Assembly (NCBI GenBank): GCA_020137815.1 | Contig: CM035358.1 | Coordinates: 7,130,001 to 7,194,000, forward strand | Origin: Hormiphora californensis | Taxonomy: Eukaryota; Animalia; Ctenophora | Length of the DNA: 64,000 bases | Reading direction: 5' to 3' | Shown: positions 10,966-18,670 of the stretch, piece after piece | Layout of the letters: every line of letters starts with the position of its first letter | Position numbering within the stretch: the first letter of the stretch is position 1 | Program-made: the position numbers and the translations under genes | The notes under the pieces: generated by a model | What the model was told of the DNA's origin: nothing | Databases searched by the model: none | Seen by the model: only the letters and a program-made list of their open reading frames with translations

Positions 10966-13509
10966 CTACAACGCAAGATACTGCTTAACCATTGCAAGAG
11001 AGTCCACACTAAGTGAAAGATTTAGAAGTGAGTCGTTGTAGGTTTGTGTCAGGTTGTACAGAAAGGCCTGAAGGCTCTTCTTCAGTGTAGAGTGGCTCGC
11101 GTTGGTGGTTGCCATTGGGATCTGATGGGAAGAGATGGTTAGTGATTTGGGAATATTGAATAGGGACACTGGATATTTGTCTCCGATAAAGTCATTGACG
11201 GAGAAATTCCCCCTTCCTAATACGCTCCAGTTGCAGATTGGAGGCTGACTCCAGTATCTGGCGCCAGCCTCCAGTCTGCAACTGGGAGAGTCCCTGTGCG
11301 CGCCAAATCTTCGTTGACTAGCAGGGTTTTCGATGTGAATTGCATGTAAAGTAGCGCGCGCGGCAGTGTCAGCAGTGTCAGCAGGGGCGTTACTAACATC
11401 AGTCGCAAAATCTCTAACTGGAAAGGGGAAAATATCGTATTGCTCGACGCGGAAGTTCCCTCTCTATCTCCCCGGGTATAAACAAAACAAGAAAAAGCCG
11501 TGACCCTGATAAGATCATATTACCTGTTCAATAGTTTTGAGAGTAGCAGTAACAGAGTTTACTATCTCCGGCAGACTCAACTGAACAACTCCATATCTAT
11601 CTTCCTCTTTAGCTCTGCAACACAGCATCCCCACTGATTCAGATAGAGCGAGTAGGAGAGATAGAGATGTGATCTTGTTTTCTGTTTGTAGCTCTGGTAT
11701 CTCGGTCAGCAGGAATTTACCTGGAAAGACAAGCCGATTGAAAATTTGAATTCAAAGAGTCAGAAAATTCAAGTTAAATAGTTACGGAACAGTCCATAAA
11801 ACAAGGACATATTTATTTAAACCCACCAATTTTGCTGTTGATAAATCCCTCATAACATTTCTTCTTCCCTTCCTCCCACACTTCACCGCCCCACGCACTA
11901 ACAGCACTGCTAATTCTAACTCTTAGCGGGGGTGTTTCACTCCCAGCCAACAAATCATCCTGTTTTGGAGGCAGGGAATACAGCTGGGTGGGCTTTGTAT
12001 CCACTTTTAGGGCACGTCCTGCCTGCTTAGTGGGAGACTTGTTGGTGACCGGGGATGTAGGCTTGGTAGGGGTGTCAGCCATAGCATTGTTGAAAGCAGC
12101 TAGGGTTCCAGTTAGCTCTTTGTACAGGGTGTGCCACATAACTGGGTGTCCATCGTATAGGTTTAGTAGTTCTACTCGCGAGTTGAGGGAGGCAGATATG
12201 GAGCGGGTTATATCGGTTAGACCGTGGTATTTTAGACGGAGGTCAGTAGATTTGATTGCCTCTACACATCGTTCAAGGCTTGTTCTTCCTTTAACCTGTA
12301 AGGGGACCGAATTTAATATAATTGAAATTGGGAACACCCTGTACACAACACCCTGTTGACAAAAAAACACGGTTAAATGAAGATAGATTTACCTTGGGGA
12401 TATCACTATTAGCAGCAACATGTATAGTAGCCTGGTAACCAAGTGTTAGACTGAGGAGGGTGCAGAATGCAGTCAGGGGGATATTGATAAGTGTGGAGGG
12501 TCGCAGGAAGAACTGATAGCCCAGATCGGTAGTTCGAGTTTTGCAAATGTAGCTTGCAGCGTGGGTTATGTCGCTGTAGAATAGCACGTAAACCGGGAGG
12601 ACAAATCTGATGACCTGAGAGGGGGTTGGAGAGGAGTAATTGACATGAACGAGAAATGAACTTCTTCAAAGCAAATTGAATGAAATCCTGAAATCACACA
12701 CACACATACACACACGATAGTTGAAGTTGGCGCGCGCGCGATTTTGTGTGCCTGGAGTGTTGAAAGCCTTCACGTCGCCTCTGATTCACTGTTAGCGCGC
12801 CCTACCTTAAGTGTGTTGGTTGCCGCGTGTTTCGCCCATTGTGGCCCACTGAGCCTCAACTTGGTGACCCATGGGATTCGGACCGCTGGAGAGGTGTATT
12901 GGTATTTGTAGTGGAGTATGCAGTCGGATAGGTGGTATTGGGCGGTCACAGTGCACCAGAATAGGGCTAGGTTGGATTGGAGATCATCGGTGTACCTGTG
13001 TGAAAGAGTGAGTGGAGACTTTAATTCAGTTATATGATCCCTAATTATTAATTTCTCCCAACGATAATCTTTAACTACTATCTCTCAATCTTACCATATG
13101 TTGACAAGACCAGAGACAAAGTAGCTGAAGATCAAGTTAGCTGAAAGAAGGAAGGCTATTTCTTTGGTGAAGAAACTCTGAAATCGGGCCAATCTGGTGG
13201 TTGATTTGGTGACTTGGGGCACGCAGAGGGAGAGGAAGGTGAGGGAGTAGGCCGAGATTAGAGATACCGTACAGAGCCAAGTTATCAGGATTTCACCCTG
13301 TAAAGAGAAGTTGAAAGGGTCCAGAAATTGAACAGCAGTTTCAGTGTTTGGATTATTGAAGTAGAAAGTTTACTTCAAAAAGGAAAAAAAGGGTCTGAAG
13401 AAAAGAAATTGTGTGCAGTACTGACCAGTGATTGGAAGGGAAGAGTGATGGGTAGAACAAGGATCAAACTTGGAACCACCAACGACAGACACAATTCCAA
13501 CTCCTTCAT
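10966..13509 (-). CDS. NDC1: Transmembrane nucleoporin NDC1 (TMEM48), ~506 aa; exons 13509-13426, 13297-13095, 12995-12806, 12614-12393, 12295-11827, 11720-11524, 11121-10966
   Basis: Hydrophobic N-terminal TM segments. Motifs LKYHGLTDI…SRVELLNLYDGHPVMW and EEDRYGVVQLSLPEIV correspond to NDC1 KYLALQDL…GGHPHNW and EDRFGVVQTTLPAIL. Splice phases are consistent. Confidence 0.85.
11221..11420. mobile_element. ~200-bp interspersed repeat in NDC1 intron (also at ~39126-39345)
   Basis: Near-identical copy at 39126; internal hairpin ccagttgcagattggaggctg…cagcctccagtctgcaactgg. Confidence 0.7.
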
Positions 13510-13717
13510 TGCTGTGAGGGCAATACATAGTACATGTGTAACTGTAATTGTGTGTAACCCTTGGTTACACCTTAAGGTAACCATGGTTACCAACTAGTTT
13601 TTGTGTAACCATGGTTACCAACTAGTTTTTGTGTAAATCCCCCTTCTCCCGGCAGATGACAAATCAAGAAACACAAATCTTTCAGAATGTAATAAAAACA
13701 ATGAAAACACCAATAAG

Positions 13718-14041
13718 TTAGTCAAAGAGTGAGAATCCCATATCATCATCTGACTCCTCTTCCTCGCTTTCCTCCTTCTTGGCCTCCTCAACAGGGGCAG
13801 CATCACCACCAGCGGCGGGGGCAGCTGACACGGCACCGGCAGCAGGGGCCGATCCGATGGCACTCAGGAGCGCACCAACATCCTGTCCAGCGAGGCACTT
13901 GGCGAAGAGGGTTGGCCAGATCACCTCGATATCAACCTTGGCTGCCTTGCACAGGGCTGTGATCTTGTCAGCGGTGATAGGGATCTCATCGTCGTGGAGG
14001 ATCAGGGCACTGTAGACACACGCGAGCTCGTTGGTGTTCAT
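13718..14041 (-). CDS. RPLP1: 60S acidic ribosomal protein P1
   Basis: [27 protein letters not shown]…[15 protein letters not shown]; intronless, 107 aa. Confidence 0.97.
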
Positions 14042-14055
14042 TTCAATGATCAGCA

Positions 14056-14410
14056 GAACCTTGAGACTAGCTAGATAGGAAGGGCTGGTTAGATTCGAGG
14101 TATAAGGGGGGGGGGGCTGGAGGGCATAACCTTGAGACTAGCTAGATAGGAAGAGGTGGGGGTTAGAGAGAGGGTGTGGGTTAGTAGAGACTAGCTAGAT
14201 AGAGGATGTGTGGGTTATATTATAGATAGGGGGAACCTTGAGACTAGCTAGATAGGAAGAGGTGGGTTAGTAGAGACTAGCTAGATAGAGGATGTGTGGG
14301 TTAGTAGAGACTAGCTAGATAGGAAGAGGTGGGTTAGTAGAGACTAGCTAGATAGAGGTGTGGGGGTTAGATTCTAGATAGGGGGAACCTTGAGACTAGC
14401 TAGATAGGGC
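14056..14410 (-). repeat. Tandem reiteration of the RPLP1 branch-point/3' acceptor cassette (8 copies of ctatctagctagtctc)
   Basis: gagactagctagatag on + at 14063, 14134, 14187, 14240, 14273, 14307, 14340 and 14392. Confidence 0.8.
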
Positions 14411-14836
14411 AGATCATGTGGGTTAGATATAGATGGGGCAGATGGTGGTTCGAATAGGTAGGGGGGGGGGGACAGATGTGGGTTAGGATTTAGAATTGCA
14501 AAACAAGTGCTAGGACAAGGTTAGATCGACTGGGAAATTGAGGGATCTGGGGACAATGAATAAAACACGGATTATTTTTCAATAAATAAAAAATACCGAA
14601 CCCCAAAAAAACACAGACATCCATCACACAAACAAACTTGTCTTCACAGCATCCTCTTGGTCGATTTAGGCCGGGTGGAGTTCTGATTTTGGAATTACGT
14701 GAAGCTGATTCTTTAGATTTTTCAAAAATATTTCTCCCAAGAAGAGCGTAGAAGGTACGAGAGTGTCCAGTGAGATAGATAGTATCTTCTGAGATCCGAT
14801 ATCATTGGAGAGAGGGAGAGCTGAGACAGAGGGTGT

Positions 14837-17226: not shown

Positions 17227-17370
17227 AGTTTCACTACCTTCACAATTTAGTTGGATATTAGTGTGTTCAAAGTGAGGCATTTGGGATCGGGAGGGGAGAC
17301 TGAAAGACTGAATAAAACAAAATTCAATTTCGATAAAATAAAAATCATCGGATGGGTAAAACAGAGCAAG

Positions 17371-18104
17371 TTAGGCCTTCACGGCGTAGACACGCTGACT
17401 GAAGTGAGTGTCCACCTTCCTCTGTCGGAGTGTCCTGAGGGAGCTCTCGTTGGCAGTCAGGGCTCGTCGGATAGCTCGGGTCTTCTTGGGCCTCAGGTCA
17501 AGGGGCATGTACCTGAATAAGGGGGAGAGTTGTTAGAGATGTATAATTACAAATCTAGATCTAAAACTAAAACCTAGATCTTGAGACAGACCCCTAGATT
17601 AACACTACTGGGTTTCAGTCAGGGTGTGGCACACAAATGTAATACAGACACACAGCATTGACAGTGAAATACTAACTTCTTGGTCTTATAGAACTTCCTC
17701 AGATTTTCCCTCTGGTTGGCTCGCAGAACGGTTCGGCATCGGGCAATGCTCTTCCTGACATCCTTAATCTTGGACAGTTTGTTGGTGGCACCACCAGTCA
17801 CCTTCTGGACCTGCCGGGGAAATGGAATGGGTTAACAAAAACCAATCTTAGTTGGAATAACATTTTGATTATTATGTTCAAGGTGATAAAAAAACAAGAG
17901 AGATCAAAACAAGAGAGATCAACAGGGATTTTAATGAAATCTGGGTACTCCTTGGAGGGTTATTTAACTTTACAACAGCAATATCAAGTATTTACCATGT
18001 ATCTGTACCTGAAGATTGGATAGCTCAGTTTTCTGTTCCTCGAGCTGCTTCAGGAGCTCTTCCTTTGTCTTGCCTCGCAGAGCTGGAGCCTTAACTCGGA
18101 CCAT
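17371..18104 (-). CDS. RPL35: 60S ribosomal protein L35 (uL29), 123 aa; exons 18104-18009, 17810-17677, 17512-17371
   Basis: [56 protein letters not shown]…[20 protein letters not shown]…YAVKA*. Confidence 0.97.
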
Positions 18105-18127
18105 GGCTAGATAGAGATAGTGGGTGA

Positions 18128-18187
18128 CCCGGGTGTATTAACAACTGAGAGAATGTTAACATCTTTCTCAGTTGTAATACACCCGGG
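18128..18187. repeat. 60-bp hairpin/mini-MITE between RPL38 and RPL35
   Basis: cccgggtgtatta(a)caactgaga…tctcagttgtaatacacccggg. Confidence 0.75.
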
Positions 18188-18351
18188 CTGCAAAGACGTG
18201 GTTAGTTTGTCGATACCCCTGTGTAACTTAAGTTTCTACGTCACTTGATAAATGATAGTATCAAAGATCAAGGACAGAAGATATTACACAGGGAGCCCAA
18301 TAAAACGAAGTTTGTTTCCGATAAGTTAAAAATTTCAAGATGGTAAGAAGT

Positions 18352-18670
18352 CTAGTTCAGCTCTTTGACAGTCAGGCCAGGGGGCAGGGATTGTTTCAGT
18401 TTGTCGGCCTTCTCGGGATCAGTCACGACGAGGGTGTAGAGGTACTTGCTGCATCGGACCTGCGGAAGAAGAGGATTTGAGCCTTAGGTTTAACGAATAA
18501 TCAGGATCATAGAGCACACTGGGTCGAATAGATGAATACTTTTGTTTGATTTATAAGTTACGAACCTTGAACTTGACCTTGTCCTTAGACTTGATAATTT
18601 TCACAGACTTGGCATCGGTTTTCCTGGCCTTGTGGAGGAAGTCCCTGATCTCGAGAATCTGTCGAGGCAT
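18352..18670 (-). CDS. RPL38: 60S ribosomal protein L38 (eL38), 70 aa; exons 18670-18566 and 18459-18352
   Basis: [70 protein letters not shown]. Confidence 0.97.

Follow-up and report, generated by a model that had tools for sequence, protein, structure and literature searches.

The locus holds seven genes in the order RPL38-RPL35-RPL41-RRP9-RPL41-RPLP1-NDC1, all seven on the minus strand and head to tail. They lie in the window, i.e., the whole 64,000-nt stretch of Hormiphora DNA that was analysed, at the following positions.

18352..18670, minus strand: RPL38 (eL38) CDS, first gene of the cluster; exons 18670-18566 and 18459-18352; Pfam L38e
17371..18104, minus strand: RPL35 (uL29) CDS; exons 18104-18009, 17810-17677 and 17512-17371; Pfam L29
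17149..17226, minus strand: RPL41 (eL41), copy a; Pfam L41
15258..16703, minus strand: RRP9/U3-55K CDS; exons 16703-16477 and 16293-15258; best PDB match human U3-55K
14837..14914, minus strand: RPL41, copy b; Pfam L41 and RNA contigs
13718..14041, minus strand: RPLP1 (P1) CDS, intronless; Pfam Ribosomal_60s, E 3e-26; RNA contigs
10966..13509, minus strand: NDC1 CDS, seven exons (13509-13426, 13297-13095, 12995-12806, 12614-12393, 12295-11827, 11720-11524, 11121-10966); Pfam Ndc1_Nup

The initial annotation had proposed seven co-oriented genes in 7.7 kb, and this description is borne out: the stop-to-start gaps in gene order are exactly those it gave (247, 144, 445, 343, 795 and 208 nt), the spliced models of all seven genes have GT..AG introns and no internal stops, and Pfam and PDB matches support the identities. 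The products have 70 aa (RPL38), 123 aa (RPL35), 25 aa (each RPL41), 420 aa (RRP9), 107 aa (RPLP1) and 506 aa (NDC1). The WD40 protein of the cluster has human U3-55K/RRP9 as its best PDB match (E 1.2e-84); for NDC1, the curated cut-off of Pfam Ndc1_Nup is reached by one of the five exons scanned, with a weak match on another. In RNA contigs the 106-nt RPL38 intron (three of four runs), both RPL35 introns (four of four runs) and the last NDC1 intron (run X5) are spliced out. NDC1 is the last gene of the cluster and is followed by a convergent gene with an Enkurin domain.

The density of seven genes in 7.7 kb compares with a Hormiphora average of one gene per 7.7 kb. Ribosomal protein (RP) genes number about 80. 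With this figure, taken as general background, and a total of 14,265 genes (PMC8527503), about 2e-4 such functional runs are expected by chance per genome; the clustering is thus far above chance.

Spliced-leader junctions and mature RNA ends

The RNA evidence consists of assembled contigs, mostly from poly(A) libraries (seven distinct runs of the 24 listed). Loose contig ends carrying spliced-leader (SL) sequence occur at four acceptor sequences (RPL38, RPL35, RPL41 and RPLP1) in runs from five studies. The longest of them, compared by eye, agrees in 24 of 25 letters with the Hormiphora leader printed by Schultz et al. (2021, PMC8527503), which is the same leader from the same family (Pleurobrachiidae). 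No leader copy was found in the window, 45 kb upstream included (one match at two mismatches, with 3.5 expected by chance); the leader joined at the locus is the published ctenophore SL and is not encoded there. The acceptors are as follows.

18677..18678, minus strand: RPL38 SL acceptor AG, 6 nt before the ATG; SL loose ends in runs X2 and X7, and a contig of run X3 begins exactly there, while X1 has no cover at this site
18107..18108, minus strand: RPL35 SL acceptor AG, 2 nt before the ATG; SL loose ends in X1, X2 and X7
17238..17239, minus strand: RPL41a SL acceptor AG, 11 nt before the ATG; SL loose ends at 17239 in X2, X3 and X7
16712 or 16708 (the G), minus strand: candidate RRP9 acceptors, predicted from sequence
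14926-14927, minus strand: RPL41b SL acceptor AG; contigs of X3 and X7
14071..14072, minus strand: RPLP1 SL acceptor AG, 29 nt before the ATG; SL loose ends in X2, X5 and X9 (three of four runs)
13512 (the G), minus strand: NDC1 acceptor, a prediction likewise made on the letters

The messages of RPL38, RPL35, RPL41 (copy b directly) and RPLP1 are trans-spliced. For copy b, contigs of X3 and X7 carry the SL together with the b allele (17191 C>T) and continue into the copy b 3' UTR (placed at 14807); the SL on copy a can only be deduced, because the 5' sequence is common to both copies. Three of the six downstream genes (RPL35, RPL41b and RPLP1) thus have an SL that is seen directly. The same 15-24 nt from the 3' part of the leader are found on the first and on the downstream genes, and the contigs stop short of its 5' half.

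An AG 2-18 nt before every ATG had been claimed, with the SL expected at each. The quoted motifs exist, and the SL is indeed joined at those of RPL38, RPL35 and RPL41; the RPLP1 acceptor was misplaced at ctcaag, 18 nt before the ATG, and the RNA (three of four runs) puts it at a nearby AG 11 nt further upstream. The proximity of an AG is in any case a weak criterion: of the 1864 ATGs in the window, 1245 (67%) are preceded by an AG that ends 2-18 nt before them.

Cis-spliced 5' exons, named at the outset among the findings that would overturn the proposal, are excluded by the SL junctions as the main form of RPL38, RPL35, RPL41 and RPLP1. A reading of the AGs as plain cis-splice acceptors, belonging to 5' UTR introns whose small exons would sit in the spacers or to a single genomic leader exon that the genes share upstream, is very improbable: the known SL is joined at four of the acceptors, the window offers no leader copy, and no strong splice donor was found in the six spacers. 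What this explanation can claim is that the RRP9 and NDC1 acceptors are predictions, and that in a lobate contig (L001, discussed below) a GTAAGT resembling a splice donor is found 43 nt upstream of the AG of RRP9, so that a short 5' UTR intron is possible in that contig.

The RNA of RPL38 ends at 18319 (contigs of three studies), no more than 212 nt short of the RPL35 acceptor, and that of RPL35 at 17329, no more than 91 nt short of the RPL41a acceptor; positions 17260-17321 have no RNA cover in four of four runs. The RPL41a 3' UTR has its poly(A) site at 16967, as read from an X1 contig (16967-17177) that includes 18 T; from there to the predicted acceptor of RRP9 is 255 nt. Overall, the distances from RNA end to acceptor are at most 91, at most 212, 255 (predicted acceptor) and about 515 nt, with repeats inflating two of the spacers; long repeats also occur within 14101-16949. 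In the mapped stretches, RNA cover of spacers and introns is confined to 3' UTRs and to one interspersed repeat, which lies in the last intron of NDC1. No contig joins two cluster genes; the contigs are mostly poly(A) and unable to reveal transient precursors either way. NDC1 is represented by 3' fragments only, in one of four runs, contig depth being unsuited to ranking genes.

Spacers and flanks

The following features lie between and upstream of the genes.

18679..19440, minus strand: putative promoter/outron region upstream of RPL38
18299..18306, minus strand: U-rich GTTTTATT motif, 12 nt below the RPL38 RNA end
17311-17318, 15164-15171 and 14559-14566, minus strand: further U-rich GTTTTATT copies
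14060..14410, minus strand: minisatellite in the RPL41b-RPLP1 spacer, with eight copies of the acceptor motif

The SL is seen on the last of the eight minisatellite acceptor copies, the sole copy within the RNA-mapped stretch. The U-rich motif, which is likely a 3'-end processing element, has seven copies in the window where shuffled sequence has 2.8 on average, a count to be read in the knowledge that the motif was picked after these spacers were viewed. An interspersed inverted-repeat element (about 18748-19243) lies inside the putative promoter/outron region. An Rfam scan for snoRNA gave nothing above chance (one match, E 0.26). Of the 198 longer ORFs outside the cluster that are not of low complexity, 145 were searched with Pfam, an approach that small-exon genes would escape; no upstream cluster member was found, and the only matches were three LINE reverse transcriptases and two of low complexity. 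An Atlas search with the flanking gene gave no match.

The genes could also be closely packed and separately transcribed, with their own promoters in the spacer or in the 3' end of the upstream gene, short outrons replaced by the SL, and shared regulation keeping the cluster together. We regard this as unlikely. The SL is found on most ctenophore mRNAs, being carried by 56% or more of the Iso-Seq reads of Hormiphora (PMC8527503); it is therefore not an operon marker and would be expected even without an operon, and in every SL animal covered by PMC6883708 and PMC7986045 genes outside operons are trans-spliced too. It also counts against an operon that the first gene, RPL38, bears the same leader as the downstream genes. 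Several spacers leave 200-500 nt, most of the distances from RNA end to acceptor (up to 212, 255 and about 515 nt) could fit a compact promoter and outron, and shared chromatin or enhancers could keep a co-expressed cluster. Against separate promoters stand the 91 nt or less between the RPL35 RNA end and the RPL41a acceptor. The six spacers contain a single TATA-like word, within the RPL41a 3' UTR; since RP promoters are frequently without TATA, this scarcity is a weak argument.

Conservation in other ctenophores

The RPL35 protein is identical to P. bachei sb/3475711, RRP9 is 97% identical to sb/3465090, and NDC1 has 324 of 343 residues in common with sb/3466358, both from the same start. The model sb/3465090 is RRP9 fused to RPL41, an annotation error that the cluster exposes; PMC7986045 describes fusions of this kind for operon genes, and the model counts in favour of an operon.

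The initial annotation suggested looking for synteny in other ctenophores, and the order is indeed kept, for three of the seven genes, RRP9-RPL41-RPLP1, in L001, a single 2.3-kb contig of a lobate ctenophore. Of the 12 loci given by a metagenome scan, sequence identity marks L001 alone as orthologous to RRP9; the remaining 11 match at 19-38%. The L001 RRP9 is 61% identical to that of Hormiphora, is without an intron and groups with the cluster to which Mnemiopsis KAL5250670.1 belongs (support 95/96). The gaps are 303 and 410 nt; order, strand and short spacing are retained though the spacer sequence is unalignable with that of Hormiphora, which speaks against separate promoters. Microsynteny is otherwise scarce, the largest Hormiphora-Mnemiopsis collinear blocks comprising four genes only (PMC8527503). 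The reading of L001 as a spliced dicistronic RNA, its RRP9 being intronless, was rejected: full-length intronless relatives are called on contigs of 97 kb and 140 kb, and L001 is therefore probably genomic. An RRP9 relative and a relative of an NDC1 exon each map to one ENA contig 97,069 nt long. The equal length is a hint, circumstantial and no more, at linkage of NDC1 there too; two unrelated short records also have a length in common (1977).

These data also bear on an assembly or duplication artefact, e.g., a false RPL41 duplicate or chimeric joins, which is hardly conceivable. The RPL41 copies are identical in 97 of 99 nt, as a false duplicate would be, but their 3' UTRs are unrelated to each other, both are found in RNA, and the RRP9-RPL41 adjacency is met again in P. 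bachei and L001.

The operon reading and known SL operons

We believe that the cluster is probably an SL-resolved operon with a promoter upstream, a statement that includes a hybrid or split form with an internal promoter. A single seven-gene transcription unit is possible, at somewhat under even chances, and a hybrid or split arrangement is rather doubtful when taken by itself. A shared transcript cut into single messages is likely because the genes are head to tail, at least four messages have a common leader, and the three-gene order is kept in a distant comb jelly. From this we infer co-transcription, a promoter upstream of RPL38, and the SL on RPL41a, RRP9 and NDC1. RNA polymerase II would read through the short spacers from that promoter, each upstream neighbour would be cleaved and polyadenylated, and the downstream gene would then receive its 5' end by trans-splicing of the ctenophore SL.

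SL trans-splicing in ctenophores is established; Derelle et al. reportedly described it in 2010, and Moroz et al. are said to have predicted operon-like clusters in P. bachei in 2014. It had been assumed at the outset that both SL and operons are reported for this group, and only the former is correct according to PMC7986045 (2021), which gives ctenophores as a group with SL but without reported operons. The words “operon” and “polycistron” do not occur in the main text of PMC8527503, and no validated ctenophore operon was found in the literature searched. RP operons are already known in nematodes (PMC1657053), Oikopleura (PMC1488885) and chaetognaths (PMC12460157).

It is tempting to go further and to propose, with confidence just short of even, that ctenophores have their own SL-resolved operons; that the ribosome-making one found here (four distinct RP genes and RRP9, with NDC1) is older than the Pleurobrachiidae-Lobata split; that polycistronic transcription held the block together amid scrambled gene order; and that it is convergent with the RP operons of nematodes, Oikopleura and chaetognaths. 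The locus is a concrete, testable operon candidate in an early-branching animal lineage: its SL junctions are mapped, one spacer measures 91 nt or less, the genes are highly conserved, and a lobate closely related to the laboratory model Mnemiopsis has an orthologous block. If it is confirmed, a deep animal lineage would join those in which ribosome genes have repeatedly been captured into SL operons; the locus would also bear on the proposed replacement of the TOP motif by the SL in growth control (PMC6883708), and would suggest that the rare microsynteny blocks common to ctenophore genomes are operons.

In nematodes RP genes favour operons (49%; Guiliano & Blaxter 2006, PMC1657053), and CEOP1032 rpl-27a/rpa-1 (P1) and CEOP5428 fib-1/rps-16 likewise bring RP genes, the acidic P1 and a U3 snoRNP factor into tight co-oriented units, which are SL-resolved and conserved over long times; Brugia uses one SL for upstream and downstream genes, comparable with what is seen here of the 3' part of the leader. 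The partner genes and the lineage differ, C. elegans has a dedicated SL2 for downstream genes, and the polycistronic pre-mRNA of nematodes was demonstrated by RT-PCR (PMC1657053), that of the present cluster being putative.

The distances from RNA end to acceptor are mostly greater than in Ciona, Oikopleura and C. elegans (spacers of about 100 nt in the last; PMC7986045, PMC1488885), and fall within the range of Trichuris (median 517 nt; PMC7986045). Oikopleura dioica also has a single SL on operonic and non-operonic genes, most of its RP mRNAs are trans-spliced, and at least 14 RP genes are in candidate operons, with intercistronic DNA of 23-60 nt against about 90-500 nt here (PMC1488885, PMC6883708, PMC7986045). 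Ciona RP genes, unlike these, are mostly without trans-splicing, and the Ciona type of operon, with no or very short intercistronic DNA (cut-off 84 nt), does not accommodate the 255 nt of RPL41a-RRP9 (predicted acceptor) or the 212 nt of RPL38-RPL35. The chaetognath Paraspadella, like this cluster as far as its leader is covered, is without an operon-specific SL; its operons, the longest having nine genes, RP genes included, are defined by SL and spacing, with a cut-off of 250 bp between gene models, within which three of our six stop-to-start gaps fall (PMC12460157). The RFC140/flp operon of Hydra, also a non-bilaterian, is bicistronic, joins functionally unrelated genes and was verified by experiment, which sets it apart; it resembles the present cluster in its spacer, which spans several hundred nt (<417 nt, the distances here being within that range) and has both a U-rich tract and an acceptor for the SL (Dana et al. 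2012, PMC3273482).

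The cluster and its surroundings

The window was examined on both strands. Its seven genes, RPL38, RPL35, RPL41 (upstream copy a), RRP9, RPL41 (downstream copy b), RPLP1 and NDC1, lie on the minus strand from 18670 to 10966, and the six stop-to-start gaps of the initial annotation were reproduced exactly on remeasurement. All seven models give stop-free translations with GT..AG introns. RPL38, RPL35, RPL41, RPLP1 and NDC1 were identified by Pfam; for the WD40 protein, human U3-55K/RRP9 is the top PDB match (E 1e-84). Among Pleurobrachia bachei models, sb/3475711 matches RPL35 without a difference, sb/3465090 matches RRP9 at 97% identity, and NDC1 shares 324 of 343 residues and the start codon with sb/3466358. 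These matches place the window in P. bachei itself or in a species very near to it, and the independent models support the predicted exon structures. Four different ribosomal protein (RP) genes within six consecutive loci have an expectation of ~2e-4 per genome, for an assumed count of about 80 RP genes.

The downstream boundary of the cluster is a convergent gene:

9503-9991, plus strand: Enkurin-domain gene (PF13864, E 2e-9), convergent to the cluster

Directly upstream lies an interspersed inverted-repeat element, and Pfam recognised no additional cluster member among the upstream ORFs. Related MITE-like non-coding interspersed elements with inverted repeats occupy 18748-19243, 11221-11422, 38964-39347 and 33906-33954, one of them 70 nt above the RPL38 acceptor and another within the last NDC1 intron. 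On the opposite (plus) strand upstream of the cluster, a 116-nt exon-like segment following an acceptor-like tract is duplicated (19576-19691, 20394-20509); it has no Pfam match and may belong to a divergent gene or be what is left of a transposon.

Elsewhere, three LINE-type reverse transcriptase ORFs are found on the plus strand (24544-28059, 29794-33324, 40702-42651). Two of them encode ~1170 aa with an endonuclease, and a long ORF1-like frame lies before each (22437-24467, 28378-29667). A 1-kb interspersed repeat occurs in inverted orientation at 8346-9365 and 5433-6420 (95% identity). Two hydrophobic plus-strand ORFs of 182 and 126 aa (53459-54007, 60491-60871), seemingly related by eye, have no Pfam match.

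Spliced leader on the RNAs

The initial annotation proposed spliced leader (SL) trans-splicing at an AG shortly before each start codon. This pattern is weak alone, since 1245 of the 1864 ATGs in the window satisfy it; the proposed acceptors do carry pyrimidine tracts, at 0.5-0.8, where the ten cis acceptors score 0.65-0.95 and AGs overall average 0.42. Trans-splicing itself is borne out by the RNA for RPL38, RPL35, RPL41 and RPLP1. All 24 public runs listed are assembled contigs, and seven were aligned to the window: X1, X2, X3 and X7 (four studies) on 16950-18780, where all RPL38 and RPL35 cis-introns are skipped, and X2, X5, X9 and X23 on 10900-14100. Among the loose ends listed, leader sequence follows 18678 for RPL38 (X2, X7), 18108 for RPL35 (X1, X2, X7) and 17239 for RPL41 (X2, X3, X7), as had been proposed. 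All three carry one sequence, which in reverse complement corresponds to the 3' part of the Hormiphora leader given in PMC8527503; the longest matches at 24 of 25 letters. The genomic acceptor AG overlaps the final AG of the leader, and no leader copy was found within the window.

The RPLP1 acceptor had been misplaced: in three runs the leader joins at 14072, which is 29 nt before the ATG and 11 nt upstream of the AG chosen. The acceptor motif is repeated eight times, and this site falls in the final copy, the only one inside the stretch to which RNA was aligned. All eight lie in a minisatellite (14060-14410) and the motif occurs nowhere else in the window; the extra copies are possible alternative SL sites. 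NDC1 is represented by 3' fragments from X5, which confirm its last intron.

The 5' sequence is common to both RPL41 copies. In X3 and X7 the SL contigs have the b allele and run on into the b 3' UTR; therefore the leader on RPL41b is demonstrated. RPL41a is expressed too, with a polyadenylated 3' UTR of its own (X1), no alternative 5' end was seen in the aligned contigs, and it likely carries the leader too, an assignment not unique to copy a. The copies (14836-14934, 17148-17246) agree in 97 of 99 nt over a stretch that starts 8 nt before the acceptor and closes with the stop codon; their flanks are unrelated. Gene conversion or a very short duplication could account for this. A retrocopy is ruled out, since the copies have DNA ahead of the acceptor in common but differ in their 3' UTRs.

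Operon or separate promoters

The RNA contigs show the SL junctions and the separate mRNAs. We believe that the cluster is probably an operon. Polymerase II would start upstream of RPL38, whose outron the leader would replace, and read on through the whole cluster; each upstream RNA would be cleaved and receive a poly(A) tail, and the product downstream of it would be recapped via SL at the following AG, so that single mRNAs result with just 2-29 nt of their own 5' UTR. We regard it as a strong candidate rather than a proven member, since the defining features, a single promoter and a polycistronic precursor, are those that we infer.

RNA ends give tighter spacing than the stop-to-start gaps. 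From RNA end to acceptor, RPL38 to RPL35 measures at most 212 nt and RPL35 to RPL41a at most 91 nt. The RPL41a poly(A) site stands 255 nt from the predicted RRP9 acceptor (~160 nt of it CT microsatellite), and RPL41b to RPLP1 measures ~515 nt (~350 nt of it minisatellite), assuming a collinear 250-nt loose end. The main alternative is that each gene has a compact promoter and a short outron. We retain this as an unlikely yet appreciable possibility because 56% or more of the long reads from Hormiphora carry the leader (PMC8527503) and several spacers run to a few hundred nucleotides. We count within the operon reading a hybrid arrangement with a promoter inside the cluster, for which the most plausible place is ahead of RRP9 or RPLP1. 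Unequal mRNA levels within one operon are known in nematodes (PMC1657053).

AATAAA/ATTAAA is absent from five of the six spacers. The U-rich GTTTTATT stands 10-19 nt below three RNA ends and once after RRP9; it is no argument for an operon, since it was picked post hoc and its probable role is in the 3'-end processing of genes in general.

Conservation in other ctenophores

The initial annotation suggested synteny in other ctenophores as a check, and part of the order is indeed kept. A metagenome scan for RRP9 gave 12 loci, of which one is an orthologue, on a contig of 2265 nt (L001) where RRP9 is followed by RPL41 and the beginning of RPLP1, ordered and oriented as in the window. Its gaps are 303 and 410 nt, an AG lies 2 nt ahead of the RRP9 and RPL41 start codons, and it is alignable with the window in coding parts only. 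Its RRP9 is 61% identical to that of the window and 87% to a sequence cluster holding Mnemiopsis leidyi KAL5250670.1, with which it groups (support 95/96; 18 rows chosen from 101 matches, midpoint root). On this order and grouping, the block extends across Pleurobrachiidae and a lobate-like lineage, even though Hormiphora-Mnemiopsis collinear blocks hold four genes at most (PMC8527503). The C-terminal end of P. bachei sb/3465090 is a complete RPL41, so RRP9 and RPL41 are adjacent there also; the public model fuses them into a spurious WD40-L41 protein. For both an NDC1 exon 5 relative and the Mnemiopsis-type RRP9, the source is a single contig of 97,069 nt, a hint, short of proof, that NDC1 is linked as well.

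This cluster resembles the RP-rich operons known from nematodes, Oikopleura and chaetognaths, as well as the Hydra RFC140/flp operon. PMC6883708 proposes for Oikopleura that the leader substitutes for TOP; by analogy, the pyrimidine-rich ctenophore leader could do the same. Ctenophore operons are stated as unreported in PMC7986045, and our search, which did not reach Derelle 2010 and Moroz 2014, found no paper on them or on this cluster. This candidate would join a known kind, in a phylum for which the search gave no validated operon. Moroz in 2014 reportedly predicted several hundred operon-like clusters in P. bachei. If so, the idea of operons is no novelty in the genus, and what is added here is backing, from RNA and across lineages, for one particular unit with a functional theme.

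The L001 RRP9 lacks the coding intron found in the window gene. A donor-like GTAAGT stands 43 nt above its AG (L001:72-114), and a tiny 5' UTR intron before lobate RRP9 is possible.
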